Of a DNA stretch of 64,000 nt, positions 19,456 through 39,341 are shown piece after piece. Position 1 is the first letter of the stretch, and every line of letters starts with the position of its first letter. The stretch comes from a bacterium SCSIO 12643 (lineage in GTDB: Bacteria > Bacteroidota > Bacteroidia > Flavobacteriales_G > Salibacteraceae), in contig CP073750.1 in assembly GCA_024398135.1 (NCBI GenBank), forward strand, positions 4,022,471-4,086,470, in the 5' to 3' direction. A program made the position numbers and the translations under genes. The notes beneath the pieces are model-generated. The model did no database searches, was not told the origin of the DNA, and saw only the letters and a program-made list of their open reading frames with translations.

Positions 19456-21819
19456 TTAAAACTTAAAATTATATGTCACCGAAGGAACAATCGAGAATAA
19501 TGCGGTTTGCACTGCTTCAGACTGAAGCGGGTTATTTTCGTTTTGTCTAAATGTTATGGTATATGCATTTTGTCTTCCATAAACGTTGTAAATTGAAAAA
19601 TTCCAACTGGATTGTACCTTCTTTGCTACTTTTATTGTTTCTCCGGTTTTAGGGTCTTTATGCGATTTGTATTTATCTCCGTCTATGGTTAGCCCAATAT
19701 CCATCCTGTGGTAATCTGGCATTCGATACCCATTTCTCTCTGTATAATATGGTACGTATTGGTTGTTTACGATATACTTCCCGGAAGGAAATGTCACCGC
19801 ATTTCCGGTGTAATACACCCAGTTTGCAGCCAATCGTAGTTTTTCATTAATTCGATACATCGCTACAATGGAAATATCATGAATACGGTCTTGTTTTGCC
19901 GGATAAGCCGAACCTCCATTAATCTCAGGAATCTTCTTGAAACTACGTGAATACGTATACCCTAACCATCCGGTAAATTTGCCTTTGGTTTTCTTTAGCA
20001 AAAACTCAAGTCCATAGGCGTATCCTTTTCCAAATACCAATTGATTTTCAACGGTTTCATTTAAAAATAAATTAGCTCCATCCATATAATCTAGCTGATT
20101 TTGGAAATTCTTGTAATATCCTTCTAATGAGAAAGTATACATATTGTGTTTAAAATTCCTGAAATATCCCAGCGCGAATTGATCTGCAATTAATGGCTTG
20201 ATATTGTTACTACTTGGCACCCAGATATCATTAGGTTGTGCTGATGTAGAATTAGACAACAGATGCATATACTGATAGTTTCTATTATAAGATGACTTGA
20301 TCGAGCTAACATCGTTTAATTGATATTTTAGATTAATTCGTGGTTCAATTCCACCGTATTGTTGAATGCTTTGACCCGCTGAATACTTATCAGCAGAAAC
20401 AGTATTCCCCTGACTATCGAATACATATTTTGTCCCGGGCCCTACCAGATTGAAATGAGAATATCTGATTCCATAGTTGATAGAAAAAACGCCATTGATC
20501 TGACTATTATTTTGGACATAAATAGCACTTTCTAAAGCATTTTTATCATCAAGTTTAAGCGTACTCACCTCTCCTTCGGTTAGAGATCCAGGAAGAAATT
20601 TGTGATAAATCACATTAGCTCCAAATTCCAAAGTATTCTTATCATTAAGGTAATAACCAAAGTCTTGTTTAAAATTCCAATCTCGAATTAATGAGCTGAT
20701 CACCAGAGATTGCGTACCTACGCTTTGATTGATCTTGTAGTTGTAATCACTAAAGATGATGGATGTGTTTGAAAATAATTTATCACTAAAAATATGGTTC
20801 CATCTTAGCGAACCTGTGATATTTCCCCAATCGAAACTAAAGGTATTCCCAAAACCTAAATTATCTCTACCAAAATATCCGGATACATACACCCGATCTT
20901 TTTCGCTGACCTGATAATTAGCCTTGGCCGTAAAATCGTAAAAATATAATTGGTTGTTTCTGAGCGCAGCGTTGTTTGAGAGTTTTAAAAATAAATCTGC
21001 ATAAGTTCTACGTCCCGAAACTACAAATGACCCCTTGTTTTTTACAATGGGGGCTTCCACCGTTAACTTTGATGAAATCAGTCCAATCCCGCCTTTTACC
21101 GCAAGTTCCTTACTGTTTCCGTCAATCGTTTTTATATCCATTACGGAAGAAGCACGCCCACCATATTTGGCTGGCATCCCCCCTTTGTACAATGTAGCAT
21201 CTTTAATCACGTCTGAATTAAACACTGAAAAGAAACCCAATAAATGTGAGGCATTGTATACAGGTGCTTCATCTAGTAATATCAAATTTTGATCAGCTGC
21301 TCCTCCCCTTACAAAAAAGCCACTATTCCCTTCTCCTGCTGATTTAACTCCTGGTGTAAGCTGCATTACCTTGATAATGTCTTTTTCTCCAAAAATTACA
21401 GGAATCGATTCTATTTCCTTTGTAGTAATCTTGGTGACACTCATTTCGTTTTTAGTCACATTTTGATCTTCCTTATCAGCTGTAATCACCAATTCATCCA
21501 ATACTTCAGTATTAGAATTCAACTCCATATTAATCTTTAGATTTTGAGTTAAGGTAATTTCCTTTTTGATTGTTATATAACCCACAAAAGAGTATTCCAG
21601 TGTATAATTCCCTTCTGGAAGTGTAAGTGAGTAAAATCCATACACATTGGACGTTGCGCCAACTCCCGATAGTTCTACAACGCGGACAGTTGCTCCGATT
21701 AAATCTTCTCCATTAGCGGCATCTTTTATATTTCCGCTAATACTATATTTTGTTTGCGCAAAAGCAGAACCGGAACTCAAAAAGAGTATTAAAATATAGG
21801 CTCCAAAAATGTTTCTCAT
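19456..21819 (-). CDS. TonB-dependent outer-membrane receptor (CarboxypepD_reg + plug + barrel; no STN domain)
   Basis: Signal peptide 'MRNIFGAYILILFLSSGSAFAQ'; 'ISGNIKDAANGEDLIGATVRV'; C-terminal 'YNFKF'. Confidence 0.9.
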   Translation of the reverse strand: MRNIFGAYILILFLSSGSAFAQTKYSISGNIKDAANGEDLIGATVRVVELSGVGATSNVYGFYSLTLPEGNYTLEYSFVGYITIKKEITLTQNLKINMELNSNTEVLDELVITADKEDQNVTKNEMSVTKITTKEIESIPVIFGEKDIIKVMQLTPGVKSAGEGNSGFFVRGGAADQNLILLDEAPVYNASHLLGFFSVFNSDVIKDATLYKGGMPAKYGGRASSVMDIKTIDGNSKELAVKGGIGLISSKLTVEAPIVKNKGSFVVSGRRTYADLFLKLSNNAALRNNQLYFYDFTAKANYQVSEKDRVYVSGYFGRDNLGFGNTFSFDWGNITGSLRWNHIFSDKLFSNTSIIFSDYNYKINQSVGTQSLVISSLIRDWNFKQDFGYYLNDKNTLEFGANVIYHKFLPGSLTEGEVSTLKLDDKNALESAIYVQNNSQINGVFSINYGIRYSHFNLVGPGTKYVFDSQGNTVSADKYSAGQSIQQYGGIEPRINLKYQLNDVSSIKSSYNRNYQYMHLLSNSTSAQPNDIWVPSSNNIKPLIADQFALGYFRNFKHNMYTFSLEGYYKNFQNQLDYMDGANLFLNETVENQLVFGKGYAYGLEFLLKKTKGKFTGWLGYTYSRSFKKIPEINGGSAYPAKQDRIHDISIVAMYRINEKLRLAANWVYYTGNAVTFPSGKYIVNNQYVPYYTERNGYRMPDYHRMDIGLTIDGDKYKSHKDPKTGETIKVAKKVQSSWNFSIYNVYGRQNAYTITFRQNENNPLQSEAVQTALFSIVPSVTYNFKF

Positions 21820-21883
21820 AGTTATGTTTTGGAGCTGTTAACGAGGGTTAATTCGATTTCGTTTAATCCATTTTTTAAGAATA

Positions 21884-21914
21884 TACGTTTACCTGTTTTT
21901 CATCTACGTTTGCC
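21884..21914. promoter_or_regulatory. Direct repeat TACGTTT(A/G)CC x2 with 21-bp periodicity in the promoter region of the TonB-receptor/DUF4249/kinase/LytTR gene string
   Basis: Copies at 21884-21893 and 21905-21914, 65-95 bp upstream of the receptor start codon (minus strand). Confidence 0.35.
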
Positions 21915-21987
21915 ATAATACGGCTAAAAAGACGGTTAAATATAGGGGGCTCAATTCAGATTTATCAGCGAATAAACCTAAAGAGGG

Positions 21988-22458
21988 TTAGATGATTCCT
22001 TCATTGGGTCTATAAATGTAATAGCCATTCGTTCCATTATAGACAGAAGTCCCATTAATTATAATACTAGTATAAGGTAAAGTCTCGCTTTTTCTATCTA
22101 TCCCCTGGTCTCTATACAGGTATAAAATTTTCTGGTTGGTATTCCTCCTTCTTGTCTGCTCTAAATAAATCACAAAAACATCATTGGTAACTTTAAATTC
22201 GTAATCGCAATGTGCCAATAGACTTTCTAAGGCTGCATCCATAGATTCATAAGAAGAAGAATCACTTATAACGCAATTCGCTAATAAATTATCACTGAAA
22301 GAAAACTGAAAATCGTATGTTAGTCCAAGGCTATATAACACTTCATTTAAGGGTTCTTGATTTACTTTAATTTCGATGTTTTGAGCGCTTAGGCTCGTCC
22401 ATGCAAAACCACATAAGATAACTGAGCTAAGTAACTTACGTAGAATACTATTTATCAC
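21988..22458 (-). CDS. Stand-alone STN-domain protein (signal peptide + secretin/TonB N-terminal signalling domain, no plug/barrel)
   Basis: 'NIEIKVNQEPLNEVLYSLGLTYDFQFSFSDNLL' STN-like; 1-nt overlap with FecR gene; 168-bp gap to the next receptor gene, which has its own signal peptide. Confidence 0.55.
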   Translation of the reverse strand: MINSILRKLLSSVILCGFAWTSLSAQNIEIKVNQEPLNEVLYSLGLTYDFQFSFSDNLLANCVISDSSSYESMDAALESLLAHCDYEFKVTNDVFVIYLEQTRRRNTNQKILYLYRDQGIDRKSETLPYTSIIINGTSVYNGTNGYYIYRPNEGII

Positions 22459-23339
22459 TATCTCTCTGCTGTTACTTTATAATTCCTTGAATTCAACTTC
22501 GTAAAAGTAAGATTAAAACTTTGACAAATGATATCTAATGCAGTTTCTGGTGATTTAGTTTTATTAAACCTCCCTGTGTATGAATAATTTGAGATATCAT
22601 TTATTTCTTTCGATATGGTAATATCATACTGTATTTCCAGGTTAGTCAATACTTTATCTAATGGTACTTTATTAAAATTAAACTTATTCGACTTCCATGA
22701 TAAAACTTCATTTCCCATATTCTTTTCAATAACACCAACTCCGGTTACCTCATAAACCGCCATTTCTCCAGCCGAGATTCTTAAATCCTTTTGAGATATC
22801 ACAGAAAAAACGCTTACCGCCCCTTCTTCACAATATACTTTATACCCATCATCTCTTGTATTAATATTAAATCGGGTTCCCAGGACTTTTGTTACCCCAT
22901 TATCAGAAACTACTTTAAACGGGCTCCCTTCTTTTACATCAAAAAAAGCCTCTCCGGTTAGCGTCACATTCCTCTGGCTACTCCATGTATAGGGATTATA
23001 TATAACTCTGGAGTCCGCATTCAAATCAACGGTTGATCCATCAGGAAAAACATGAGATTCTCGAGCTCCCCTATCCGCTTTAATTTCTATAGAATAAAAC
23101 TGAATAAACAAAAATCCTCCTGTGATTATCACAACTATAAAAGCGGTTACTAATTTTAACCATAAAGCTGATAAAAACGATGTTTTGGGTTTATGAATCA
23201 CAGCGTTCTCAATTTGCGTGGAAATTTTGTCCCAAATCTCCTCCTTACTCTCATCAAAAGGGATATCAGCGTTCTGAAAGAACTTAAGGTCTTCAGACCC
23301 TTTTGGGCTTTGTGTGGTATTTAAATCGTCAATATTCAT
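22458..23339 (-). CDS. FecR-family anti-sigma factor (single TM, DUF4974-like periplasmic domain)
   Basis: 293 aa; central TM 'LWLKLVTAFIVVIITGGFLF'; position directly after the ECF sigma gene. Confidence 0.75.
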   Translation of the reverse strand: MNIDDLNTTQSPKGSEDLKFFQNADIPFDESKEEIWDKISTQIENAVIHKPKTSFLSALWLKLVTAFIVVIITGGFLFIQFYSIEIKADRGARESHVFPDGSTVDLNADSRVIYNPYTWSSQRNVTLTGEAFFDVKEGSPFKVVSDNGVTKVLGTRFNINTRDDGYKVYCEEGAVSVFSVISQKDLRISAGEMAVYEVTGVGVIEKNMGNEVLSWKSNKFNFNKVPLDKVLTNLEIQYDITISKEINDISNYSYTGRFNKTKSPETALDIICQSFNLTFTKLNSRNYKVTAER

Positions 23340-23825
23340 CTACACTATTATTAATTTTCTTAATTCGGCCAATGCATTGCTCATTCTTTTCTCTACGGCT
23401 TTTACTCCAATACCAAGTCGTTCAGAAATTTCTTTATAGGTTAAATCTTCAAATCTACTCATCAGGAAAACAATTCTTTGTTTTTCTGTAAGCTGGGCAA
23501 GTGCTAACTCATAGTGCTTTTTTAATTCTTTGTATTCCACATAATTGTCATACGAACCTCCGGAAAAACTAAACTTAATTTCTTTTAAATATTCTCCTGC
23601 AACTTTTTCTTTTCTATAATGGCTAACACATAGATCAAAAGCAATTTTATACAAAAGGGCCTTAGTTTTTTTAGGGTGATAATCAAATTGTTTTTCCCAT
23701 ACTTTGATAAATGTTTCCTGGGCAATATCGGTAGCTAAATCAGCATCTCCTGTCCGATAAAACACATACCTCCGGATGGAATCAAAATATTGATTATATA
23801 TTTTTTTAAACTCTTCTTTGTTCAA
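23340..23825 (-). CDS. ECF (sigma-70 family, group IV) RNA polymerase sigma factor
   Basis: Region-2 'DIAQETFIKVWEK' and region-4 'YKEISERLGIGVKAVEKRMSNALAELRK'. Confidence 0.85.
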   Translation of the reverse strand: MNKEEFKKIYNQYFDSIRRYVFYRTGDADLATDIAQETFIKVWEKQFDYHPKKTKALLYKIAFDLCVSHYRKEKVAGEYLKEIKFSFSGGSYDNYVEYKELKKHYELALAQLTEKQRIVFLMSRFEDLTYKEISERLGIGVKAVEKRMSNALAELRKLIIV

Positions 23826-23901: not shown

Positions 23902-24447
23902 CTATTTCTTTAATTTCTTTTTATTCAAACTGAATGTTTTACTTCCACCTTTCCACTTCTTGGTAGCCCATTCATCACAAGTACCGTCACCATAATCAAT
24001 GGTCGCTACCCATTCTCCATTCTTTGAATAATATTTAATAGTTCCTTGAACAATGTAATTACAATCCTCTGTTTTTACCAACGGGTTAATAATTACTTTT
24101 TTGAAATCAGACTTATTTTGCTGTAAACTTAGTTTACTAGATTTACCATTCTTAATAATTGTAGCTTCACTAACATAGCCATTCCCAAAATCAACAATCG
24201 CTAAAACTTCGTTGGATTTTGAATATTCGATAACTCCATCAGAATAACAATCTGAATTGTTTAATGCTAAAGGTGAAACAATATTTGTTTGATAACCTGA
24301 AACAGGTAAAGTTAGGGAAGCTTCATCATATAAAATATCTGCCTCAACAGCAGCTTCGGGAGACAAGCTTTCTTTCTGACAAGACAACAGAGATACAGCA
24401 CAACAGCCTAAAGCCAATATGCCCATCCGGTTTCCAGAATTTTTCAT
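23902..24447 (-). CDS. Hypothetical lipoprotein
   Basis: Lipobox 'LALGCCAVSLLSC'; no recognisable motif. Confidence 0.5.
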   Translation of the reverse strand: MKNSGNRMGILALGCCAVSLLSCQKESLSPEAAVEADILYDEASLTLPVSGYQTNIVSPLALNNSDCYSDGVIEYSKSNEVLAIVDFGNGYVSEATIIKNGKSSKLSLQQNKSDFKKVIINPLVKTEDCNYIVQGTIKYYSKNGEWVATIDYGDGTCDEWATKKWKGGSKTFSLNKKKLKK

Positions 24448-24615: not shown

Positions 24616-24960
24616 ATGAAAAATCTTATCTTCTTCACGTTAATTTCAATTGGTATTTTTTCTTCCTCATGCGATGAAAGCATTTCTTGTCCGAATATGG
24701 AAGAACATCATCCTGATGCCATTTTAAGATGGACAGGTGACTATGCATTAGATGGCTGCGGTTACATCATCGTTATGGATCAGGTAGAATACAAACCTTT
24801 AAATGAAAATGTAATTGACCCCGGGTTTAAATTGGATTATGATGTAAAGGTTGCGGTTACTTATGAAATTCCACATGATGAAAAAGAAATTGCTTGTGGA
24901 ATGACCAAAGAACCTGTATACAGGGAAGGAATACAGATTATTTCACTCGAAAAGAAATAG
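24616..24960 (+). CDS. Hypothetical small lipoprotein
   Basis: 'MKNLIFFTLISIGIFSSSC' signal/lipobox. Confidence 0.5.
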   Translation: MKNLIFFTLISIGIFSSSCDESISCPNMEEHHPDAILRWTGDYALDGCGYIIVMDQVEYKPLNENVIDPGFKLDYDVKVAVTYEIPHDEKEIACGMTKEPVYREGIQIISLEKK

Positions 24961-24961
24961 T

Positions 24962-25441
24962 CTAGATATTCAAATTCATCCAATCTAGCAAACGCATCAT
25001 TAAACTCTTTTTAGCTTTAAACTCAGGATTACTTTTAAAATCCGCGAGTTGCTTTTCAAAGGTTTCTAAGGAAATAAACTTTTTAAGGTTTAATGACATG
25101 TAATGAACCAAAGCCTCCACCTCATGCCTAGGGAGTCCCAATGCAATTCCCAGATCATGACATAACTGGATTTCCTTTTCATGAGCGTACATATCCATCT
25201 TCATCATGGTTAATATCCTCCAGAAAAACTCTGTTTTTTGCTCATAAGTTTCTGGTGGAACAATAGATACCTGATCCAGATCTTTTTTTAAAGTCGCTAT
25301 CACTCCATGGTCTACTCCAAGAGTATTTGATAGCATGGTAATATTCATCTGCTCAAAATGACTCACAGATCCATCAGCCTGTGCCATTTTAATTAAAGCC
25401 AATATGAGAGATGTGTTCGGGTCTACGGAAATAGAATTCAT
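24962..25441 (-). CDS. TerB-like (tellurite-resistance TerB / DjlA-N-like) domain protein
   Basis: 'LILALIKMAQADGSVSHFEQ' matches the TerB 'A.ADG....E' helix; last gene of the co-directional cluster. Confidence 0.55.
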   Translation of the reverse strand: MNSISVDPNTSLILALIKMAQADGSVSHFEQMNITMLSNTLGVDHGVIATLKKDLDQVSIVPPETYEQKTEFFWRILTMMKMDMYAHEKEIQLCHDLGIALGLPRHEVEALVHYMSLNLKKFISLETFEKQLADFKSNPEFKAKKSLMMRLLDWMNLNI

Positions 25442-25505: not shown

Positions 25506-25901
25506 TTAATTTAAGGCCTCTTCCATCTGTTCTTTGGAAAGCACCTTATCCAAATTATCAATACTTAATTGAATCACTTTGGATAATTGTTCGTCAGTAA
25601 AGCCCATCAAACCGCCAATATGTTTGCAGATTTCAACCTCCTCACTATCTGCGGTCATATCTAAGCTCATTAAAGTCAGAATATCATACAACACCTGAAC
25701 TTTCCCGTCACTAGTAACAGGCGGTTCAGACTTAATAGACTCTACATTTAATGCAACCTCATTGAAATCAGCACTGGATAAACCTAACCTGATCGCAACG
25801 GTTTTAATGAATATAACTTCTTCTTGAGTTAATTTATTATCTGCCTTTGCAATCTTGATTAAGTTGGCAATGTGATTTTTCTTAATTTCTTTAGTCACCA
25901 T
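25506..25901 (-). CDS. TerB-like domain protein (second copy)
   Basis: 'IANLIKIAKADNKLTQEEVIFI' TerB-like motif; 24-bp gap after the giant ATPase gene. Confidence 0.6.
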   Translation of the reverse strand: MVTKEIKKNHIANLIKIAKADNKLTQEEVIFIKTVAIRLGLSSADFNEVALNVESIKSEPPVTSDGKVQVLYDILTLMSLDMTADSEEVEICKHIGGLMGFTDEQLSKVIQLSIDNLDKVLSKEQMEEALN

Positions 25902-25925: not shown

Positions 25926-28900
25926 TCAATTCTTTGAAAGTTCATTTTTAATTCCAATCAACCCTTCTGATACACGTTCTATCTGGGATAGAATCATGGC
26001 CATTTGGTTTTGATCACCAAAGCCTCTTAACCTCTGATTTTTCTGAAATTTTGTCTTAATCTCACTCCATCGGGAGATATCTTCTTCCCGCATCCAGCCT
26101 ACCATCTCCTTAAATTTCAACAGGTTTGCTTCTGAACTGGTGGTTAAAGTTTGCGATTCACTTTCGTACGCATTTAAAATCAGCAAATCCAATTCTTTAT
26201 CGTTCATAATTGGAACAATCTTTTCCGCAATTTTGTTCATATTCCTATAAGATCCTTGTAGTTTAAATGGCGGCTCTTTTCTAAACTGATCTTCCATTGC
26301 TGCGGACTTAATATATTCCTTATTCACTCGAAGCACGATATCTCTTACCTTGATCAACTTTTTTAATACCGAAACATAATCATTCATGTCTTCAACACTG
26401 TGATTAGACTCAAATTCTAAATCTCCTCTTTCTCCGGTGCTGGCCCAATCCATCAATTGATACAAGTCTTTTTGACTCTTACCTGATAGTTTTCTAAGGG
26501 TTGTATTCGAAGTTAAACAGTTTTCAATGTAACTGGATTCAAATGCTTCATCGGTTTCTCCAATGATATCTCCCAGGTTATAGATATCAGCTCTATTGGC
26601 TAGCATATCAGGAATCTTAAACTTATCACCACTCTCGGTATATGGATTACCAGCCATCACCACACATACCTTCTTCCCTCTTAAATCGTAAGTTTTTGAC
26701 TTTCCTTTATATACGCCTTCAATTTTTCTTTGCGCATCACTTAAGGAAATAAACTTTTGTAAAAACTCCGGATGACAATGTTGGATATCATCCAAATATA
26801 TCATCACATTATCTCCCATTTCCAAACCTAAGTTCAGCTTCTTAATTTCCTCACGCGCAGCAGAATTTGGAGCCATTTCAGGATCAAGAGACGTTGTTTC
26901 ATGTCCCAGTGAAGGACCATTTATTTTTAAGAATATAATGCCCAACCTACTGGCTATATACTCCATTAAGGTTGTCTTACCATACCCTGGAGGTGAAATC
27001 AGCAACAACATACCCATCAAGTCAGTTCTCTTATTATCATCAGATGTACCAATTTGTTTTGCAAGATTATCCCCAATTAATGGCAGATAAACCTGATTTA
27101 TGAGTTTGTTTCTCACAAACGAACTCATCACCTTAGGTTTCAATTCATCAAGTCTTAATTCTTCTTTATAACCTTTAATATATTCACGCTTCAGATGGTT
27201 AAACTGTTGATAAAACGGGATATTATATGTTTCAAACTTTCTTAAACGTCTAACAAAGTCATGATAATTAATGGTTAAGTCTTGCTCTTTAATTCTTGCA
27301 TGAATTCCTTGAAGTCCTTCTAGCTTAGAATTCAGGTCGACATTGATCAATTTTCGCTTTCCATGATCATCACCTATTAAAGCAACGGCTGCTTCGGATA
27401 AGACTTCATCAGCATACTCCAAATGGTTTTCAGCATATGCGCTTAACCAACTTTTAGCGATCGTATATTTTGAAGATGCTTCCCGAAGCTCGGTAATAGA
27501 ATTCGAGAATAATTTTGTCTTCTTATTCTCTTTCAAATAGGTATGAAATGCTTCACTTAAAGCATAAGATTCTTTACTTATGGAAAACTTATTATCATGT
27601 GCCAATTCGGCAAATAAATACCCGGAGATATCATTGCCGTGCACATTATTAAAAATATTACTTTGCTCAATAAACGCTTCAATTTGTTGACCTAATTCCA
27701 ATACCAAAGCATCATACACTTTTGTATCCGGAAAAGCGCTTTGGATATTACCCACGCTCTTGATCTGACTTAAAATCACATTTTTGTAATCCGAATCTAT
27801 TACAAATTGCCAGTAATAGATTGCACAGGCTCTAACCTCCGGAGCATACTTCAGTACACCTCCGCTTTGAATCATCTTTACTAATTCTTTAAGAATTAAC
27901 AAAGCATCATGATCATGTATACCTTTTACATATCCCTCATCATATCGCTTAGATATAACATCCGATATCAACGCTTCATATTTATCCTTAGGCCAGGCTA
28001 GTATTTGTGAAAAGTCAGAAAATTCAGATTCTAACTGCGACAAAATTTGCCAGGCCAAATACTCACTTCGATAGACCTCTTCATTCTCCGAAACTATGGA
28101 TTGATTCCACACAGGTTTGGTCTCCAAAAAATCTTTATCCTGAATTCTTTCGAAAAAGTTTGTACCTGTAATGTGATAATACATATCCTCACCTCTTGGT
28201 ACTATAGAAAGATCTAAACTTTGTTGATTCACAAAAAAACTATGGCGTCCAAATGAGATACTTCCCTCAGCAGAAATCAGTTCTGTTTTATCTTTTAACT
28301 GCCTAACAGCTTCTTCTCCCAATGACTTTAATTTACCCAGTATATCATCAGCCTTTACCGTATCTCCCAGTTCCAATAATTCTTCAACTACATTTCTGAG
28401 TTTATCTACCATTAAATCAGAGGCCAGATACCCATTAATTCCTTCAACGGTTTTTAATGACTTCAAACGATTTTCTACGCCTTTCAGCACCCTATCTGCT
28501 GAAGTTTGGAGTCTGGAAATTCTTTTATTTTTCTTATCAGTTAAGTAAACTTTTCTGGATTCGAAAGCATTATAAATTTCCTCTCGTTTATCGTTTAACT
28601 GACCTAAAAACTCATCAAAATCACTAAATCTACCTTCCAGTTCTTCTAATTGAATCAACAGTTTAGTCAGATATTCGTCACACTTTTGTACCGAGTCAGA
28701 GATATCCAGATAATTTACCATCCCCTGACTAATCAGTTTCAATTGCGATATAAATACAGCCTCTCCTTCAACTACCTGAAGTTCTTTTCTTTTCCGCTTT
28801 ATGGTCGCATATATCTGATTAAATTGCGAATAGATATCAGAGATATTGTTAATGATCTTAGTCGTTTCAGTAGCATCTTCAATCTTTAGATTACTCACAA

Positions 28901-30812
28901 TCTCTATGAGCATTTCTAAATCACGTGATGTTTTTAGAATTTGTTCTTCAAATTCATCCACTTCTACAACCTTGGAGAGCTTAGGTGCATTTTCCTGAAA
29001 CTCTAAGATCCTGTTTTTATAAAAATCCAGTGACTCTGCGCTCAATAAAAACGAAACACACTTCTCAGAAATAAATTCATTCTTTTCTTCAATCTCAGTT
29101 TCGAAATCATCGACCATGTCAAGATCAATGTATCTTAAGTCCTTAAGAGATATAACCTCACCTCTTAAAACCCTTAATTGCGTTAAAATCTCAACAAAAT
29201 CATCAATTCTTTCAAACTTTGAGACATTAATCCTGGACTGGAGTTCTTTGAACTTTACTTCAAAGTCAGACTGTTTCTGCTTTGTATCTTTCTTTATCCG
29301 GGTAACCTTATCAAATTCATCTATTGCCAATGAAGCTGAAGATTTGATTCCATCTAATGGCTCTTTCAGGTTAAATGTTTCCTGTTTATCCAACCAATAA
29401 TACGAATCGGAAATATCAGTAGTTTTCTTCACCAGATCTACATATAAATTGTCATATGTATCTTCTTTTTTTAGCAAATGAAGAACTTCTCCACATTCTG
29501 CCATAACCGTTACAATCTCTTTATTTCCAATTTTAGAAATTAAAGAATCTTTGTTTTCCGGAATGGTAAAGGCTTCATTTTTAAATGGTGTCTCCCATAT
29601 TTGAATTGCATGATGATTTTGTGCTTCTTCCTCTCCCTTGAAATAACACAACTCTCCATTTGGAAAAAGCGTATAACCGTGACATATCGTTGGCGAAAAA
29701 ACTTCCTGAGTAATCACATTATACGTAAGCAAAACATAGTTTCCAGTAACATTATTATGAAAGACATACAGATAATCCTCCCCATTTGATGATGAAATGG
29801 TTTGTTGATACTGCATTTGATCTACATCCAGATCAAATATTTTATACGTACCATTTTGTAAATAATATCCTCTTGGAAAAATCACACCATGATCATTGGG
29901 TAGTAGCACACAAGCCTCTCTAATGGCATCAACGCGCAACGCTTCTGATATTTTTTTGTTAAACAGAATGTATCGATAATCATTCTCTTTATAAGGTTTG
30001 ATCTTCAAAAAGATCAAATTACCCACTATAGCATAACTTATTTCGGCATCATCCAGAGTTTGATCCATAGCTTCCACCGGTTCTTCATATACGCCTCTAC
30101 CTTCATCTGTATTATCTTCAACTTTAATGGTTAAATCACCACCAATAGTTTCAACAAACACCTGGTCCTCAATAGACACATGTGGATGCGCTCCATTTCG
30201 ATACATATCTCTGGTCGTTCGAATCCAAGAAAACTCATGTTGATTCGGAATAACAACCTCATGATCACTTCGGTTATCTATATAAACCAACTTATTGGTT
30301 TCTATTCTCCATTTAAAGGTTTTAATATCATTTTTTCCTTTTCCGATTAGGAAAACCATATACAGAAATGGACCTATCTCTACGAATCTATTAAATTGGG
30401 TCTCTTTATAGTATTTATACAACTGGTTAAAATCATCTAAAAACGTTTCATCACCTATCCAGGATAAACCTTGTAAATGAAATTGGTGATTATCATATTG
30501 ATATACGCTAAAAACATCATTTAACTTAGTCACGGTTCTTAAACCAATATGCACATTATATCCGAAAATGAATTTGTCACCCAGAGAAATCATATCTCTT
30601 GGAACACATTTGTTTTCAGTCGTAATTCGCTCAGTAGTCAATAATTTCATCTCTACTGAACCGAATAACTCTTTTCGCACAGAATTAAGCTGATCTATTC
30701 TTTGCCTTAATTCCACACCATGTTTACCAAGTCTGTTAAGAATGATCTCATACGTTCCCTCTTCTAATTCTGATACTTGAGATTTTTTATTTTCTTCTTG
30801 AGATTCTAACAT
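25926..30812 (-). CDS. Giant (1628 aa) multidomain protein with a C-terminal AAA+ ATPase (AAA_5/MoxR-like) module; N-terminal ~1250 aa of unknown function
   Basis: Walker A 'ISPPGYGKTTLMEY' (encoded ~26966-26992); Walker B 'VMIYLDDIQH'; sensor/Arg-finger-like 'VVMAGNPYTESGDKFKIPDMLANRADIYNL'; long coiled-coil/helical stretches upstream. Confidence 0.7.
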   Translation of the reverse strand: MLESQEENKKSQVSELEEGTYEIILNRLGKHGVELRQRIDQLNSVRKELFGSVEMKLLTTERITTENKCVPRDMISLGDKFIFGYNVHIGLRTVTKLNDVFSVYQYDNHQFHLQGLSWIGDETFLDDFNQLYKYYKETQFNRFVEIGPFLYMVFLIGKGKNDIKTFKWRIETNKLVYIDNRSDHEVVIPNQHEFSWIRTTRDMYRNGAHPHVSIEDQVFVETIGGDLTIKVEDNTDEGRGVYEEPVEAMDQTLDDAEISYAIVGNLIFLKIKPYKENDYRYILFNKKISEALRVDAIREACVLLPNDHGVIFPRGYYLQNGTYKIFDLDVDQMQYQQTISSSNGEDYLYVFHNNVTGNYVLLTYNVITQEVFSPTICHGYTLFPNGELCYFKGEEEAQNHHAIQIWETPFKNEAFTIPENKDSLISKIGNKEIVTVMAECGEVLHLLKKEDTYDNLYVDLVKKTTDISDSYYWLDKQETFNLKEPLDGIKSSASLAIDEFDKVTRIKKDTKQKQSDFEVKFKELQSRINVSKFERIDDFVEILTQLRVLRGEVISLKDLRYIDLDMVDDFETEIEEKNEFISEKCVSFLLSAESLDFYKNRILEFQENAPKLSKVVEVDEFEEQILKTSRDLEMLIEIVSNLKIEDATETTKIINNISDIYSQFNQIYATIKRKRKELQVVEGEAVFISQLKLISQGMVNYLDISDSVQKCDEYLTKLLIQLEELEGRFSDFDEFLGQLNDKREEIYNAFESRKVYLTDKKNKRISRLQTSADRVLKGVENRLKSLKTVEGINGYLASDLMVDKLRNVVEELLELGDTVKADDILGKLKSLGEEAVRQLKDKTELISAEGSISFGRHSFFVNQQSLDLSIVPRGEDMYYHITGTNFFERIQDKDFLETKPVWNQSIVSENEEVYRSEYLAWQILSQLESEFSDFSQILAWPKDKYEALISDVISKRYDEGYVKGIHDHDALLILKELVKMIQSGGVLKYAPEVRACAIYYWQFVIDSDYKNVILSQIKSVGNIQSAFPDTKVYDALVLELGQQIEAFIEQSNIFNNVHGNDISGYLFAELAHDNKFSISKESYALSEAFHTYLKENKKTKLFSNSITELREASSKYTIAKSWLSAYAENHLEYADEVLSEAAVALIGDDHGKRKLINVDLNSKLEGLQGIHARIKEQDLTINYHDFVRRLRKFETYNIPFYQQFNHLKREYIKGYKEELRLDELKPKVMSSFVRNKLINQVYLPLIGDNLAKQIGTSDDNKRTDLMGMLLLISPPGYGKTTLMEYIASRLGIIFLKINGPSLGHETTSLDPEMAPNSAAREEIKKLNLGLEMGDNVMIYLDDIQHCHPEFLQKFISLSDAQRKIEGVYKGKSKTYDLRGKKVCVVMAGNPYTESGDKFKIPDMLANRADIYNLGDIIGETDEAFESSYIENCLTSNTTLRKLSGKSQKDLYQLMDWASTGERGDLEFESNHSVEDMNDYVSVLKKLIKVRDIVLRVNKEYIKSAAMEDQFRKEPPFKLQGSYRNMNKIAEKIVPIMNDKELDLLILNAYESESQTLTTSSEANLLKFKEMVGWMREEDISRWSEIKTKFQKNQRLRGFGDQNQMAMILSQIERVSEGLIGIKNELSKN

Positions 30813-30932: not shown

Positions 30933-33077
30933 CTATGAGATTCCCAATGAACTTGGTGTCACATTATCAATACCTGTTGTTTTAGCCATTTTTAATAGCT
31001 CTTCAAGCATTCCTTTTTCTTTGGAGTCATTAGTTTGTTGCATCATTTTAAAGATCAACATAGACACCGATAGGTTCTTTAAATCTTCAGAATCGATACC
31101 AAACTGTCGAATAAGGTTTTGTATCTTCTCCTTTAAGGAACTTCCTTCTATATCATCTAAAAAATGAGATTTTAGTCCCTTTAAAGTTTCACTGTTATCA
31201 ATAGCCCTATCTACAGATTTCCCATTTGAAATCGCTCCAATAATCTTATCAAAGAATACCGTTTCACCACCCACAATATCAATCTTAGCAGTTTTCAATG
31301 CATTGGAAATCACCTCTGCCTGTGCATCAGCTATATCTTTTTGAATTTGAATTTGAGCCAACTCCACCTGTTTCGCTTTATCCAATTCCAGTTTAAACTC
31401 TTCGTGTTCTTTACCAACACCATCCAGTTTCTTCATTGCTTCAGCTTTTTCGTGAATTCCCATCGCTTCCACATGATATTTTTCTTTGCTTACTGACGCT
31501 TCAGCCATTCCTTTCTTCTCATCAGCAACAGCTTTCGCTTCAATCACCTGTGCTTCTGCTGAACCTAATTCAATATCAGATTTAGCTTGTGCAAATGATT
31601 TCGCCTCAATTCCTTTAGCCTCTGCAAACGCTTTAGCTTCAATAACTGAAGCCTCTGCTTCTCCTTGCTTTTCTCTAGCTTCAGCTTTGGCTTCTAACAC
31701 TTTGGCTTCCGCAATTCCATGTGCTGCTTCTTTCGCTGCCTCTGCATCAGCTAGTGTTTTAATTGCTTCTGCTTTTTGAACAGAAGAATCTTGCTCGGCC
31801 TTAGCATCAATAAGAACTTTTTCAGCTCTAAATTCAGCGGCTTTTTTACCTGCCTCTGCGGCTTTAATCTGTTGCACTAAATCGGCTTCAGCTAACTCTT
31901 CAGCTTTTGTAATTGCAACCAGTTTTTCACGATCTGCCTGAGCCTTGGTTTTCGTATCCTTAATACTCTCCTCTTCAACAACTACGGTTTTCTCAATAGA
32001 AACTCTTTCTCGAATAACCTCCTGAACGTTTTTCTTTTCTTCCTCAATTGACTTTTCTTTCTCAATTTGAGCAAGAGTTACAATTCGTTCTCTTTCTGTT
32101 ACTTCAAGCATTCTATCTTTTTCTACTTTCTCTGTCTCAACAGCCTTAGTACGTTCTTTGTTTTTGGCAGCAACGATTACTTCTCGATCTTTATTTTGCT
32201 CTGCAATTTGAATTTCTTCTTCGGTAATAATTCTAGCCTTTTCCGCCTTCAGCCTTTCTTCCTGCTCCACTTTAGCTATTTCAGCTTCCTCTCTGGACTT
32301 GATATTCGCAACTTCTCTTTTCTGCTTTTCCTCCGTTTCTGCAAGTTGTTTTTCTAACTGTAAGATGGTTTCTCTTGCTTCTACGTTTTGTTTTGTGATC
32401 GTTTTCTCCTTTTCTTTCTCAATCAAATTGGATTGAATTTTTTCTTTTGAAGTGATTTCAATAATCTTCTTGATACCTTCAGCATCCAGAATATTTTTCT
32501 CATCCATATGATCTAAAGGCGTTTGCTCCAAATAATCAATTGCCGCATCATCCAGGATATAACCATTTAAATCTGTTCCTAAACTATTCAGAATTTCTTC
32601 TCTGAAATCATCACGTTTATTATATAAGTCTGCAAAATCAAACTTCTTACCTACTGTTTTAAGGGCTTCTGAGAACTTCGAATCAAACAGATTGTTTAAC
32701 ATTTCCTGATCTGAAGCCCTCACACAACCAACTGACTGTGCTACCTGAATCACATCATCAGAGGTTTTATTTACACGTACAAAAAACGCAACTTTGATAT
32801 CCGCACGCATGTTATCCTGACATACTAATCCATCCGAACCATGTCTTTCAATCAATATCGTTTTCAACGAAATATCCATCATTTCCAAACGATGCAATAC
32901 AGGAATGACCATGATACCATTAAAAGATACTTTGGTTCCTCCAACTCCGGTTCTCACCAGTGCCTGGCCTTGCGAGGCTTTTCTATACCATTTGGCAATC
33001 ATGGCAAATAAGCCTATTACCACCACAACTAGAATAACAATTCCAGTGAATACAGTATTCTGTAACATTTCCATCAT
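30933..33077 (-). CDS. Flotillin-family protein (SPFH/band-7 domain + long Glu/Ala/Lys coiled coil), YqiK-like
   Basis: N-terminal TM; SPFH-like 'GGTKVSFNG...RADIKVAFFVRV'; EA-rich repeats 'EAKAEAREKQGEAEASVIEAKAFAEAKGIEAK'. Confidence 0.85.
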   Translation of the reverse strand: MMEMLQNTVFTGIVILVVVVIGLFAMIAKWYRKASQGQALVRTGVGGTKVSFNGIMVIPVLHRLEMMDISLKTILIERHGSDGLVCQDNMRADIKVAFFVRVNKTSDDVIQVAQSVGCVRASDQEMLNNLFDSKFSEALKTVGKKFDFADLYNKRDDFREEILNSLGTDLNGYILDDAAIDYLEQTPLDHMDEKNILDAEGIKKIIEITSKEKIQSNLIEKEKEKTITKQNVEARETILQLEKQLAETEEKQKREVANIKSREEAEIAKVEQEERLKAEKARIITEEEIQIAEQNKDREVIVAAKNKERTKAVETEKVEKDRMLEVTERERIVTLAQIEKEKSIEEEKKNVQEVIRERVSIEKTVVVEEESIKDTKTKAQADREKLVAITKAEELAEADLVQQIKAAEAGKKAAEFRAEKVLIDAKAEQDSSVQKAEAIKTLADAEAAKEAAHGIAEAKVLEAKAEAREKQGEAEASVIEAKAFAEAKGIEAKSFAQAKSDIELGSAEAQVIEAKAVADEKKGMAEASVSKEKYHVEAMGIHEKAEAMKKLDGVGKEHEEFKLELDKAKQVELAQIQIQKDIADAQAEVISNALKTAKIDIVGGETVFFDKIIGAISNGKSVDRAIDNSETLKGLKSHFLDDIEGSSLKEKIQNLIRQFGIDSEDLKNLSVSMLIFKMMQQTNDSKEKGMLEELLKMAKTTGIDNVTPSSLGIS

Positions 33078-33105: not shown

Positions 33106-33768
33106 TTAGTCAATTGTTTCATAGGGCTCCACGATGTAAAAACTTGCGTCTTTCTCGTGGTTAACAACCAACATTTTTTGCCCTCTTTTGATATGTCCTC
33201 TTTTTGTTTTTATGTTAATTCTGTAATTCGATCCGGATAATAAAACTTCACCTTGTCCTAGTTTTTGATCACTTGCACTAATGATCACTTTACCTACAGT
33301 TCCTAATAAATCTTGTGTATTCTCAGTTTCCTTATCTAATATGCTAAAGATCTTAACAAAGGGATAAGTAGACGGTTTAGCAATTAATAAGCTTACTATA
33401 AAGTTTGGAATTAAGAATACAAGTGATAAAATGAATGAAGTATTTCCCAGAATATAATTGGTCATAATAGAAATCACCCACATTGGTAAAATCAAAAAAG
33501 TTAAAAAGACCATTAAAGGGATTTTATCCAAATTAAAAAATGCCAATATGTTGTTTATCCAGGAAATAGAAGCTTCACTCCCTCCATCAACCTCTGCATC
33601 CGCATCCAGATCAATGTCCGAATCTAAATCAATATCTACATCGATATCAAATGAGCTAATATCCACCGCGCCTAATATAACCAGGAGCCAATAAAACACT
33701 ACAAATACCAATAAAGCCGTAGGGATAAAATTCACTGCCGAAAAAGCAGCATGAAATAATTCAAGCAT
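33106..33768 (-). CDS. NfeD/YqiJ-like membrane protein (TM helices + acidic linker + C-terminal OB-fold-like domain)
   Basis: Two TM blocks flank the acidic 'DIDVDIDLDSDIDLDADAEVDGG'; C-terminus 'GTVGKVIISASDQKLGQGEVLLSGSNYRINIKTKRGHIKRGQKMLVV'; directly upstream of flotillin, as in the E. coli yqiJK operon. Confidence 0.65.
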   Translation of the reverse strand: MLELFHAAFSAVNFIPTALLVFVVFYWLLVILGAVDISSFDIDVDIDLDSDIDLDADAEVDGGSEASISWINNILAFFNLDKIPLMVFLTFLILPMWVISIMTNYILGNTSFILSLVFLIPNFIVSLLIAKPSTYPFVKIFSILDKETENTQDLLGTVGKVIISASDQKLGQGEVLLSGSNYRINIKTKRGHIKRGQKMLVVNHEKDASFYIVEPYETID

Positions 33769-33826: not shown

Positions 33827-34534
33827 TTACTTATCTAAACCCATTTTTGCTTTTAGAGCTGCCAGTTCATCACTTGCTTTAAGTTGATCTGCACCATCCA
33901 AAGCTTTTTCAATATCTTCATCAACAGACCTACTCTCATTTGCAATTACACCGTATGATTCTGCCAACGCTTCTTCCTGCGCCACTTTATCTTTCATTCT
34001 TTCTAATAAAGAAACAGTATCCGTAGAATCAATTTGAGCCAATTGCTTGTTCAAATTCTTGGTTGCTGTACTCACTTTCACACGTGCTTTAAGCGTTTTC
34101 AGCTCAGACTCCCATTTGCTGATATTAGACTTTATAGTCTTCACATTTGTTTCCAGCTGACTTACCGATTTTTCAAATCGATTTTTTTCTGTCAAAGCAT
34201 GAGCTGCATGTTTAATATTTTCTTCTTTAAGCACTAATGCTTCCGTAGCCAATCTATCGGCTTCACTAGCATCTAACTCATTATTCTGAGCTCTTTTCAA
34301 AAGCAACATCGCTTTACCTTCATAATCTTTCGACTTTTCTATATAAGACTCATGATCATTTCTGGCTCTAATCGCCATGGCTTTTACTTCTGCCAAAGCT
34401 TTAAGACTCTTATCCAGGTCTTCTTTCATATCACGAATTCCCTGCTCAGTAAGTTTTATAGGATCTTCTAATTTATCAACCGCAGAATGTGCTTCCGCCT
34501 GCCCTATCTTGAATAATCTATTAAATAAATTCAT
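33827..34534 (-). CDS. PspA/IM30 (Vipp1/ESCRT-III superfamily) protein
   Basis: 'MNLFNRLFKIGQAEAHSAVDKLEDPIKLTEQGIRDMKEDL' is the characteristic PspA N-terminus; all-helical coiled coil. Confidence 0.85.
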   Translation of the reverse strand: MNLFNRLFKIGQAEAHSAVDKLEDPIKLTEQGIRDMKEDLDKSLKALAEVKAMAIRARNDHESYIEKSKDYEGKAMLLLKRAQNNELDASEADRLATEALVLKEENIKHAAHALTEKNRFEKSVSQLETNVKTIKSNISKWESELKTLKARVKVSTATKNLNKQLAQIDSTDTVSLLERMKDKVAQEEALAESYGVIANESRSVDEDIEKALDGADQLKASDELAALKAKMGLDK

Positions 34535-34546
34535 AGCTAAGTTTTT

Positions 34547-34942
34547 TTAGTTTTTTGAAATCTGTATTAGTTCCTCTGAATACTCTGACAACAGTAGTGT
34601 CAACGAGTTTATTGAACCTTCTAACTCATTAATATCTAAGTTCGAAATTTGCAAAGTATCCCTGAATATCAATTTTTCACCTGATTCATCCAAGACAAAT
34701 GCGCCATGAATAATATCTCTATTCTTTTGCAATAATTTTTTGAATATCACCGGATCAGTATCTTTGACATCCAATAAATGTTGTTCCATAATCAAAATAG
34801 GATCGGCACAACCAATTACAAGATTTTTAATCCCGATACTCTCATCCTCTACAACCAAGATATTATCATTCGAATTTTCTAGGGTAACAGAATGGCCAAG
34901 ATCAATTAGGTAATTTTTAACTTTCTCGAAGCTGTCTTTCAT
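34547..34942 (-). CDS. YjfI-like (DUF2170-type) small protein, frequent upstream partner of PspA-family YjfJ
   Basis: 131 aa; 12-bp gap to the PspA gene; assignment from size, position and memory of the E. coli yjfI-yjfJ arrangement. Confidence 0.4.
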   Translation of the reverse strand: MKDSFEKVKNYLIDLGHSVTLENSNDNILVVEDESIGIKNLVIGCADPILIMEQHLLDVKDTDPVIFKKLLQKNRDIIHGAFVLDESGEKLIFRDTLQISNLDINELEGSINSLTLLLSEYSEELIQISKN

Positions 34943-35161: not shown

Positions 35162-35821
35162 ATGTCAAAAATTGGAAAAAACATCAAAAAGATACGCGCC
35201 ACCAAAAACCTCAGTCAAGCTGCATTCGCTGAAATATTTGGCTTAACCAGAGCCAGTGTTGGTGCTTACGAAGAAGGAAGAGCTGAACCCAAAACAGACA
35301 TAATTCTTCAAATTGCTAAACATTTTAGCATTCCTATTGAAACTCTGCTATCAAAAGAACTAACGGTTAATCAGTTATCAAATTTTAAAATACAAACTTC
35401 AAAAACCGATACTCCAACTAAACCCGTACTGTTTATTAATAACTGGAATTGGAGCTCGTTTATTGAAAAGCAAATTGTGACAGATCAATTTACCGTTTAC
35501 TTCCCCAATCAATTTATTAATGGAGATATTGCATTTGAAATTAACACGCATATTCAATCAAATTTTAATGTTGGTGACATCATAATATGTGAACATAATA
35601 ATTCTATAAACATTCCCGGACTTTATTTATTTATAGCAAAAGATCAGGCTTTTATTTCTGAGTCAAGTAGAATCAAAAAAGAAAACATTAGCTTTGATCA
35701 GGCTTTCCTGGTCAAACAGAAAATAGAAACCATTTCACCCCAAACCTCCTCAAACCTTGAAGATCGAATAGCTCAAATGGAGATTCAAATGGAAAAACTA
35801 ATCCAAAAACTCAATAAATGA
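35162..35821 (+). CDS. XRE-family HTH transcriptional regulator with a C-terminal uncharacterised beta-rich domain (CI/LexA-like architecture)
   Basis: 'IKKIRATKNLSQAAFAEIFGLTRASVGAYEEGRAEPKTDIILQIAKHFSIPIETLL' HTH_XRE; 4-bp overlap (ATGA) with the nuclease gene. Confidence 0.75.
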   Translation: MSKIGKNIKKIRATKNLSQAAFAEIFGLTRASVGAYEEGRAEPKTDIILQIAKHFSIPIETLLSKELTVNQLSNFKIQTSKTDTPTKPVLFINNWNWSSFIEKQIVTDQFTVYFPNQFINGDIAFEINTHIQSNFNVGDIIICEHNNSINIPGLYLFIAKDQAFISESSRIKKENISFDQAFLVKQKIETISPQTSSNLEDRIAQMEIQMEKLIQKLNK

Positions 35822-36507
35822 ACACTGTAATCCAACTTATTAAAGATTCTATCGAGGATCATGCGCTGACGAGAAGTGAAAAACGAATTTTAAAAGAAAC
35901 CATTATCGAGAAGCGCTTTGACAAGCGTGAACTTCATATTTTAAGAAGTGAAATTTTTAAAATTGCCAGAAGCCAAACCGACTTGATCCCCACCCCGAAT
36001 CTAATCGACTGGATAGAATCGGTTACAAAGCTTACATTGGTTTTAGATGATGAAAAAATTGAAAAATCTCGGGTCTATTTTAGTCCGGGTAGTGAATGTA
36101 AAAATGCCATTATTCATCATATTCAACAAGCCAGATCCAATCTTAAAATTTGCCTTTTCACCATAAGTGACAATGACATTAGCTCCGAAATTGTTGATGC
36201 GCACCTAAGAGGCATTAATGTTCAAATTATAACCGATGACCAAAAAATGTACGATATGGGATCAGATATTCGTTTGTTTCGAAAGCGAAACATCCCCATC
36301 AAAGTAGATTGTCATTACGGACACATGCATCACAAATTTTGTATTATTGACAATGAGCATGTTATTACAGGCAGTTACAATTGGACAAAAAGTGCGGAGG
36401 ACCGAAATTATGAAAACATTATTATCAACACAGAACTCAACATTATCAAAGCCTTTGAAAATGAATTCAATGAACTTTGGATGGAATTAGAATCAATTAA
36501 TAAATAG
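35818..36507 (+). CDS. Phospholipase-D-superfamily nuclease (single HKD motif, Nuc/Zucchini-like) with a ~100-aa N-terminal extension
   Basis: HKD signature 'HHKFCIIDNEHVITGSYNWT' (H-x-K-x4-D-x6-GSxN). Confidence 0.75.
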   Translation: MNTVIQLIKDSIEDHALTRSEKRILKETIIEKRFDKRELHILRSEIFKIARSQTDLIPTPNLIDWIESVTKLTLVLDDEKIEKSRVYFSPGSECKNAIIHHIQQARSNLKICLFTISDNDISSEIVDAHLRGINVQIITDDQKMYDMGSDIRLFRKRNIPIKVDCHYGHMHHKFCIIDNEHVITGSYNWTKSAEDRNYENIIINTELNIIKAFENEFNELWMELESINK

Positions 36508-39339: not shown

Positions 39340-39341
39340 TA

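Follow-up and report, generated by a model that had tools for sequence, protein, structure and literature searches.

A DUF3686-family AAA+ ATPase encoded directly after flotillin in bacterium SCSIO 12643

What does a very large protein that carries the database name 'DNA repair ATPase' do when its gene directly follows one for a flotillin? The question is raised by a locus of bacterium SCSIO 12643, within the 64,000 nucleotide stretch of contig CP073750.1 that was analyzed here and is referred to as the window. The gene lies at 25926..30812 on the minus strand, begins with ATG and has 1628 codons; it was assigned from the open reading frame (ORF), its translation, and Pfam matches to DUF3686, DUF7902 and AAA/AAA_5. 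The NCBI protein of this bacterium is 100% identical to the translation, and at least 3917 homologs are collinear with it over their full length, so this is a real gene and not a chance ORF. The ORF list, the translation and the motif positions confirmed the 1628 residue minus strand frame and its quoted motifs, as reported in an earlier reading of the letters alone (the original prediction). We find that the protein is an ordinary member of a family that combines DUF3686, DUF7902 and an AAA+ module; earlier work has described both the architecture and the operon of this family. With evenly balanced confidence, we suggest that the ATPase may be the ATP-consuming part of a sub-membrane module, running from NfeD2 (YqiJ/YuaF-like) through flotillin to the ATPase, that remodels membrane scaffolds.

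The family and its conserved neighbors

The protein has all three marks of the family: an N-terminal DUF3686 (PF12458, E=1.5e-180, residues 34-472, profile positions 1-448 of 448), a helical region with DUF7902 (PF25472, E=1.8e-24, residues 594-677) followed by a single C-terminal AAA+ module, and a place in an NfeD-like/flotillin operon. The original prediction could name no motif in the ~1250 residues that precede the ATPase, which the two matches show to have been mistaken. Both are domains of unknown function. Its description of the protein as functionally uncharacterized stands, and no confident match to a characterized family in an unrelated context was obtained, the matching family being itself uncharacterized. 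Matches to AAA and AAA_5 were weak (residues 1269-1392), with AAA_5 above its own Pfam cut-off, and every AAA match of the protein was confined to residues 1257-1392. A scan of NCBIfam gave only RuvB P-loop matches, all below threshold, and searches of the PDB with the single sequence and with a 60-sequence profile found only P-loop stretches of ~40 residues, in p97, Rix7 and RuvB; judged by sequence, the ATPase is without a solved relative. The top 120 listed homologs had a query coverage of 99-100% and lengths of mostly 1620-1700 residues. The nearest homologs among the matches listed come from Bacteroidota, and full length homologs were also found in Proteus, Vibrio, Photobacterium, Halomonas, Nonomuraea and Deinococcus.

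The genes of the window cluster are transcribed from one strand (minus) in the order CesT/Tir, PspA, YqiJ/YuaF-like, flotillin, ATPase, TerB, TerB. The first encodes a CesT/Tir-like chaperone-fold protein of 131 residues (34547..34942; Pfam CesT_Tir_1, E=5.1e-53), and is followed by a homolog of PspA/IM30, the bacterial ESCRT-III, of 235 residues (33827..34534; PspA_IM30, E=4.1e-37), a multi-transmembrane protein of 220 residues (33106..33768), and, directly upstream of the ATPase, a flotillin-type SPFH protein of 714 residues (30933..33077; Band_7, E=1.8e-9). The flotillin has an N-terminal transmembrane segment, the Band_7 domain, a long E/A/K-rich coiled coil and a conserved C-terminal region. 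The 220 residue protein itself had no significant Pfam match; within its family, 14 of 43 members matched Pfam YqiJ_N (best 3.6e-8) and two of 43 matched NfeD, and the only PDB match of the family profile was a weak one (E=0.22) to Bacillus subtilis YuaF, 2k14. These family-level matches place it in a YqiJ/YuaF (NfeD2)-like family.

Neighborhoods were compared at 80 loci, one genome per species, taken from at least 584 matching species and spanning Bacteroidota, Planctomycetota, Verrucomicrobiota, Kiritimatiellota, Omnitrophota, Desulfobacterota and Clostridia; adjacency counts (n=63 or 62) refer to the loci with enough upstream sequence. Across these phyla the ATPases are 43-55% identical over ~1600 residues. 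A flotillin homolog lay on the same strand no more than 3 kb upstream of the ATPase at 60 of 63 loci, and an NfeD-like (YqiJ/YuaF) gene was present at 55 of the 63. Pairwise identities of the ATPases and of the flotillins were correlated (r=0.70), which is consistent with inheritance and transfer of the two as a unit. The NfeD-like/flotillin/ATPase triad is kept in a member that is only 29% identical, and is present on the Pseudomonas fluorescens SBW25 plasmid pQBR103 and on a Streptomyces linear plasmid; the counterparts in Streptomyces and Pseudomonas are named 'flotillin family' and 'SPFH domain' proteins in RefSeq. PspA was found upstream on the same strand at 19 of 62 loci and CesT at 18 of 62, mostly in Bacteroidota and usually together with a divergent helix-turn-helix (HTH) gene. 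Bacteroidota, including the window, add the CesT/Tir-like protein and PspA to the module. The genes just 3' of the ATPase, or between flotillin and ATPase, differ from locus to locus. This genomic context (NfeD-like, flotillin, PspA and CesT/Tir-like genes) is the strongest functional clue available, and the original prediction made no use of it.

The operon has been described before. A 2024 survey of the phage shock protein (PSP) system in mSystems predicted computationally the same operon and architecture, acting in sub-membrane dynamics (PMC11237479). The protein that it describes as 'Betapropeller + Coiled-coil + AAA-ATPase', in a CesT/Tir-PspA-YqiJ/YuaF-flotillin operon, agrees with that of the window in domain order, in gene order (divergent cHTH; CesT/Tir, PspA, YqiJ/YuaF-like, Band-7/flotillin, ATPase) and in phylum-level setting. 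Its Table S3 gives a Dokdonia donghaensis neighborhood (ANH61663.1) with the gene order of the window, listing the divergent regulator as 'CHTH+Protease'. The same paper describes the CesT/Tir-PspA dyad, some operon variants with a PLD (HKD) hydrolase, and widespread abbreviated flotillin-YqiJ/YuaF(-ATPase) operons (PMC11237479). NfeD2-SPFH2 operons were defined in 2009 and are well established (PMC2636767). The papers found by a targeted search on bacterial flotillin and NfeD do not mention an AAA+ ATPase. As a side observation, on pQBR103 (locus L084, 1-12190) the NfeD-like, SPFH and ATPase genes come directly after an operon for PspA, rhomboid, DUF2491, DUF350, DUF1190 and a glutathionylspermidine synthase (yjf-type), and at another locus (L082:1-8887) two spermine synthase genes and an amine oxidase gene adjoin PspA in divergent orientation. 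These polyamine neighbors repeat the PspA-polyamine link reported previously (PMC11237479).

The AAA+ module, the rod and the head

The alpha/beta core of the AAA+ module covers residues 1260-1420 (26553..27035; this and all further coordinates within the protein are on the minus strand), as placed by its motifs and by an AlphaFold2 model, and it holds the only G-x-G-K-[ST] P-loop in the entire ATPase. Walker A, SPPGYGKTT, is at 26970-26993, with GYGKTT (residues 1276-1281) at 26970-26987, and Walker B, MIYLDD (residues 1337-1342), is at 26787-26804. The putative pre-sensor-1 hairpin is at 26679-26729, VVMAGNP corresponds to residues 1384-1390, and the sensor-1 residue N1389 and a candidate arginine finger, R1407, lie at 26574-26663, the latter residue within the segment IPDMLANRADIYNL (residues 1400-1413). 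The lid and the C-terminal helical domain (residues 1421-1628; 25929..26552), delimited by the model and by invariant columns, contain the invariant motif R1511-x-E-P-x-F-x-L-Q-G-S-Y-R1523 (26244-26282), a candidate sensor 2. GYGKTT, which the original prediction had placed at ~26966-26992, is thus real, as are MIYLDD and VVMAGNP, but the module including its lid and C-terminal helices extends from about residue 1235-1260 to residue 1628 and makes up the last ~370-390 residues rather than ~300.

In an alignment of 74 full length homologs from seven phyla, G1276, G1278, K1279, T1280, D1341-D1342, R1362, N1389, R1407, R1511 and R1523 were invariant; these include the acidic residues of Walker B and the putative arginine finger, whose integrity the original prediction had left to be checked. 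The mean identity of the AAA core to the window residue in these homologs was 79%, and the ATPase motifs were unaltered in members of only 29-40% identity from Pseudomonas, Vibrio, Streptomyces and a metagenome. Walker B reads 'DD' and not 'DE' in 74 of the 74 homologs and in the 29-40% identical members as well, and is followed by an invariant I-Q-H, a pattern that marks the 'DD' as a family trait and not as decay. The loop between beta2 and alpha2 is conserved (N-G-P-A-[IL]-G-H-x-V-T-S-L-D-P), and the aromatic pore-loop motif that threading AAA+ enzymes have at this place is absent from it.

The pre-sensor-1 beta-hairpin and the helix-2 insert are the features taken to define the MoxR clade. 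A hairpin at residues 1363-1376, before beta4, is compatible with the former in the AlphaFold2 model, which is of moderate confidence there; at similarly moderate confidence the latter is not visible, there being no beta-hairpin between beta2 (residues 1293-1298) and the helix at residues 1317-1332. The pattern DDIQH-x2-PEFLQKFISL-x-D-x2-R-[hairpin]-VVMAGNP-x17-R-A-D is one that we take to fit the MoxR/AAA_5 layout, and the spacing from Walker B through the hairpin and 'NP' to 'R-A-D' is that of MoxR, in agreement with the original assignment as an AAA_5/MoxR-like ATPase. When the modeled module was compared with solved structures, the nearest were the MoxR proteins NorQ and CbbQ, followed by midasin and dynein. 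The assignment to a MoxR/AAA_5-like clade is nevertheless only moderately supported, because the P-loop stretch by itself resembles classical AAA or RuvB in sequence, no helix-2 insert is seen, and beta1 is modeled with low confidence. The expected beta1, immediately before the P-loop (residues 1259-1275, window 26970-27035), had a predicted local distance difference test score (pLDDT) below 50 though its sequence is the near-invariant R-T-D-L-M-G-M-L-L-L-I-S-P-P; this strand may become ordered only in the oligomer or with nucleotide, or the low score may be a limitation of the modeling.

The protein was modeled in two parts with AlphaFold2 from a 60-sequence alignment (residues 1-880, pLDDT 83.8; residues 861-1628, pLDDT 80.8). 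After a variable, disordered tail (residues 1-16), the DUF3686 region (29397..30713 for residues 34-472, from Pfam and the model) comprises an N-terminal helix (residues 18-50) and a beta-rich, propeller-like head (residues 56-407), whose ~29 modeled strands are compatible with seven four-stranded blades. A helical rod follows (residues 424-844; 28281..29543), located by the model and Pfam, that contains DUF7902 (window 28782-29033) and that resembles, in the model, spectrin-type three-helix bundles in tandem more than a two-stranded coiled coil. The middle domain (residues 852-1230; 27123..28259), with short beta elements and a helical domain, is the least conserved part and has no recognizable relatives; a long modeled helix (residues 1183-1219) runs from it into the AAA+ module. 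The beta-rich N terminus and the long helices foreseen in the original prediction are both seen in the model, and one of the segments it quoted, EEKNEFISEKCV, corresponds to residues 575-586. Of its 'very long helical/coiled-coil stretches' the long rod held up, but this rod appears to consist of spectrin-like bundles and not to be a stalk that leaves the ring.

The fold of the head is tentative. Foldseek, run on the whole model of residues 1-880 with the head uncropped, matched IFT-A, Elp1, clathrin heavy chain, ulvan lyase, CyRPA, Vps18 and prolyl oligopeptidase, all of which contain propellers (E 3e-7 to 1e-3), but the superpositions were poor, with TM scores of 0.34 at most, and profile self-comparison with hhalign detected no internal repeats in the beta head. 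For these two reasons we describe the head as propeller-like but unconfirmed. Invariant residues on its surface include H211, E221, K230, E232, N234, E244, N343-G-E-D346, H401 and W406. When 1.84 billion representative proteins were scanned for this domain, 737 clusters were obtained; those of full length were all of 1600-1900 residues with the head at the N terminus, and the head thus appears specific to this ATPase architecture.

Two other architectures were considered and rejected. In midasin/Rea1 and the dynein heavy chains a single chain carries six AAA modules in series and the stalk leaves from within the ring, whereas the window protein has one G-x-G-K-[ST] motif, AAA matches only at residues 1257-1392, and otherwise a beta head and helical domains. 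The 'dynein/midasin-like' resemblance in the original prediction therefore holds for the large size, the long helical rod and the AAA_5-like character, and fails for the number of modules (one, not six) and for the rod, which lies N-terminal to the ATPase and is spectrin-like. Proteins of the SMC/SbcC/RecN type likewise have long helical regions and a P-loop, a likeness that is the probable source of the 'DNA repair' database name. They are ABC-type enzymes whose head is divided into N- and C-terminal halves at the two ends of an antiparallel coiled coil, in contrast to the single C-terminal AAA+ P-loop and the spectrin-like bundles seen here; no N-terminal P-loop is present, neither Pfam nor NCBIfam gave a match to SMC, RecN or SbcC, the fold is AAA+, and the neighbors are membrane stress genes.

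A proposed sub-membrane remodeler and the alternatives

What the ATPase might do beneath the membrane can be sketched from three results: its near-obligatory adjacency to flotillin, its intact AAA+ chemistry, and the rod-and-head apparatus that the models show and that is unique to the family. Because each chain has a single AAA+ module, the ATPase would have to oligomerize, and the AAA+ domains would join the chains in a ring, most likely of six. Outward from this ring would project the rods, bearing the beta heads, which would engage a partner. That partner could be flotillin, through the conserved cytoplasmic C-terminal region of its oligomer (about residues 590-714), or else NfeD, PspA polymers, or clients that flotillin holds. 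Binding and hydrolysis of ATP would alter the conformation of the ring and shift the arms, and this motion could build up, take apart or reset the scaffold of flotillin and NfeD (and PspA), or free its clients, in envelope stress. The lack of an aromatic pore loop and the replacement of the catalytic glutamate by an invariant aspartate weakly suggest a slow remodeler of the switch or lever type rather than a processive threader. A comparable arrangement exists in the HflK/C-FtsH and NfeD-SPFH operon systems, in which an SPFH scaffold and its NfeD partner share an operon or a task with an AAA+ enzyme; FtsH, however, is a classical AAA protease anchored in the membrane inside the HflK/C cage, while neither a transmembrane segment nor a protease domain was detected in the window ATPase.

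Several points weigh against this proposal. Adjacency indicates a functional link and gives neither the identity of the substrate nor the direction, assembly or disassembly, and three of the 63 loci are without an adjacent flotillin gene. Characterized MoxR-type ATPases usually pair with a VWA protein, and no VWA family was found among the recurrent neighbor families of the 80 loci or among the window proteins scanned at 19456-40049. Targeted full-text literature searches found no experimental work on the ATPase family.

The most plausible of the alternatives, though we regard it as unlikely, is a functional analog of Vps4, for which the PspA polymer would be the main substrate, to be disassembled or recycled, with flotillin and NfeD serving only as the membrane platform. 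As with Vps4 and ESCRT-III in archaea and eukaryotes, an AAA+ ATPase gene stands here beside a gene of the ESCRT-III superfamily and could play an analogous remodeling role. PspA and its CesT/Tir-like partner are clustered with the ATPase in the window and at ~30% of loci, PspA genes also lie near the ATPase on pQBR103 and in locus L081, and, according to a 2025 review of bacterial ESCRT-III (PMC7619361), an ATPase like Vps4 "appears absent in bacteria". Yet the linkage to PspA is facultative and less general than that to flotillin (19/62 against 60/63 loci), and Vps4, which belongs to the classical AAA clade and carries an MIT domain at its N terminus as well as aromatic pore loops, differs from the window ATPase on each count: no MIT-like domain was detected, the structural comparison puts the module outside the classical clade, and the pore-loop motif is missing. 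A considerably smaller chance attaches to a classical MoxR maturation chaperone, one that inserts a cofactor into or activates a single enzyme, as do NorQ, CbbQ and RavA, and has nothing to do with membrane scaffolds. The AAA+ fold with Walker A, Walker B, sensor-1 asparagine and arginine finger is shared with MoxR proteins, NorQ and CbbQ are the nearest solved structures, and AAA_5 exceeds its Pfam cut-off, but NorQ and CbbQ chains have ~250-270 residues against 1628 here and MoxR offers no counterpart to the ~1250 extra N-terminal residues. MoxR proteins generally have a VWA partner, and neither this nor a candidate client enzyme recurs among the neighbor genes scanned, in which flotillin and NfeD are the conserved ones; the 'DD' in place of 'DE' and the helix-2 insert not visible in the model are further differences.

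Scarcely probable, in our judgment, is a mobile defense or abortive infection module with the membrane scaffold proteins as sensors or effectors. In its favor are the occasional carriage of the module on plasmids (Hymenobacter, pQBR103, Streptomyces, Deinococcus), the variable flanks with occasional toxin-antitoxin, PD-(D/E)XK and AbiEii genes, and the adjoining PLD-like protein with its weak DrmC-type matches. It is hard to reconcile with the absence of a PADLOC model for the ATPase, flotillin, NfeD, PspA or CesT beyond P-loop noise (E ~5e-4), with a search of a phage collection that returned no ATPase homologs, and with an extreme conservation across phyla that is unlike that of fast-evolving defense genes. 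The activity implied by the database name, a coiled-coil ATPase like SMC, SbcC or RecN that works on DNA, we consider highly implausible and last among the alternatives. What speaks for it are names, namely the Pfam description of DUF3686 ('ATPase involved in DNA repair') and the NCBI label, and RuvB matches restricted to the P-loop; these extend over only ~45 residues at Walker A, with scores of 20-22 bits where the cut-offs are 282-299. The single C-terminal P-loop in an AAA+ fold differs from an ABC-type head that a coiled coil interrupts, no DNA repair gene recurs near the ATPase in the 80 loci, where the conserved partners are membrane proteins, and targeted literature searches found nothing that ties the family to DNA repair. 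The name is most likely a legacy annotation without evidence.

The scaffold remodeling that we favor has a bolder form, which we think rather improbable: the family would provide the energy source that has been missing for bacterial flotillin/ESCRT-III remodeling, as an AAA+ ring with six rigid spectrin-like arms and propeller-like heads that grips flotillin cages and/or PspA polymers, and whose slow, switch-like turnover of ATP (the invariant 'DD') assembles, reshapes or strips them in membrane repair or vesiculation. If true, this would make the ATPase a bacterial counterpart, in role and not in ancestry, of scaffold recyclers of the Vps4 or NSF type, and the architecture of the arms and heads would recall membrane-coat proteins built from a beta-propeller and helical repeats. 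Bacterial flotillins, NfeD proteins and PspA have drawn interest as membrane organizers and repair factors. The FloA-NfeD pair of Staphylococcus aureus is described as an ATP-independent holdase for unfolded proteins, with no direct energy cost (PMC11222466). A very large, strongly conserved ATPase encoded nearly always directly after flotillin is an obvious, testable candidate for an ATP-dependent step, from which the label 'DNA repair ATPase', present on many database entries, diverts attention by hiding the membrane connection. Novelty does not lie in the window gene; the family is a good experimental target with a misleading name, and has members in tractable hosts, including P. fluorescens SBW25 (on pQBR103), Proteus mirabilis, Vibrio campbellii, Streptomyces and Flavobacteriia.

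Other genes in and around the cluster

The two genes 3' of the ATPase both encode TerB-domain proteins, of 131 residues (25506..25901, minus strand, 24 nt from the ATPase; Pfam TerB, E=1.1e-6) and 159 residues (24962..25441, minus strand; E=1.1e-8). TerB was considered as a conserved partner and rejected: none of 62 neighbor ORFs sampled from the 80 other loci, either just downstream or between flotillin and ATPase, was a TerB protein, and the pair recurs only in the close relative Cryomorpha ignava, ~3.4 kb downstream of the ortholog (L083:14668-15540) with apparently inserted HTH, PIN and acetyltransferase genes between. TerB also goes unmentioned in the main text of the PSP survey (PMC11237479). 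The TerB pair is a lineage-specific addition and, together with a divergent PLD-like gene, the sole local peculiarity.

Divergent from CesT-PspA are an HTH_3 (XRE/Cro-type) regulator of 219 residues (35162..35821, plus strand; Pfam HTH_3, E=5.2e-11), a candidate regulator of the cluster, and the PLD-like (HKD) protein of 229 residues (35818..36507, plus strand; PLDc_2, E=2.6e-30), whose start overlaps the stop of the HTH gene by 4 nt and which has a single HKD. HTH_3 homologs are divergent from CesT-PspA at 18 loci, and homologs of the PLD-like gene were found at 4 of the 80. The DrmC-type PADLOC matches of the PLD-like protein are weak (E=3.5e-11). A promoter and terminator scan of the cluster gave nothing above the shuffled expectation and, using a sigma-70 consensus on a Bacteroidota-like genome, was uninformative; Rfam and tRNA scans of the window found nothing.

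Within the flotillin gene, antisense ORFs are present at 31486-31779 and 32067-32357 (plus strand), and similar ones occur at loci L040, L048, L054 and L074, exceeding 700 residues in some loci. Most likely these ORFs are artefacts that arise from the repetitive E/A/K-rich coding sequence of the coiled coil, and they can mask the true flotillin gene in a greedy ORF map.

Directly 3' of the PLD-like gene (36508-40049, plus strand) are a 943 residue sensor kinase (Reg_prop / Y_Y_Y / His_kinase) and a LytTR response regulator, a pair that could regulate the adjacent stress cluster or be unrelated to it. On the other side, two small Cys-rich proteins with N termini like those of signal peptides or lipoproteins (23902-24447, minus strand, 181 residues; 24616-24960, plus strand, 114 residues) had no Pfam match and no homolog in the 80 related loci. 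Farther downstream (19456-23825, minus strand) lie genes for an extracytoplasmic function (ECF) sigma factor, a FecR-like anti-sigma factor, a short ORF with FecR_C only and a TonB-dependent receptor, a typical trans-envelope signaling unit of Bacteroidota that is probably unrelated to the cluster.

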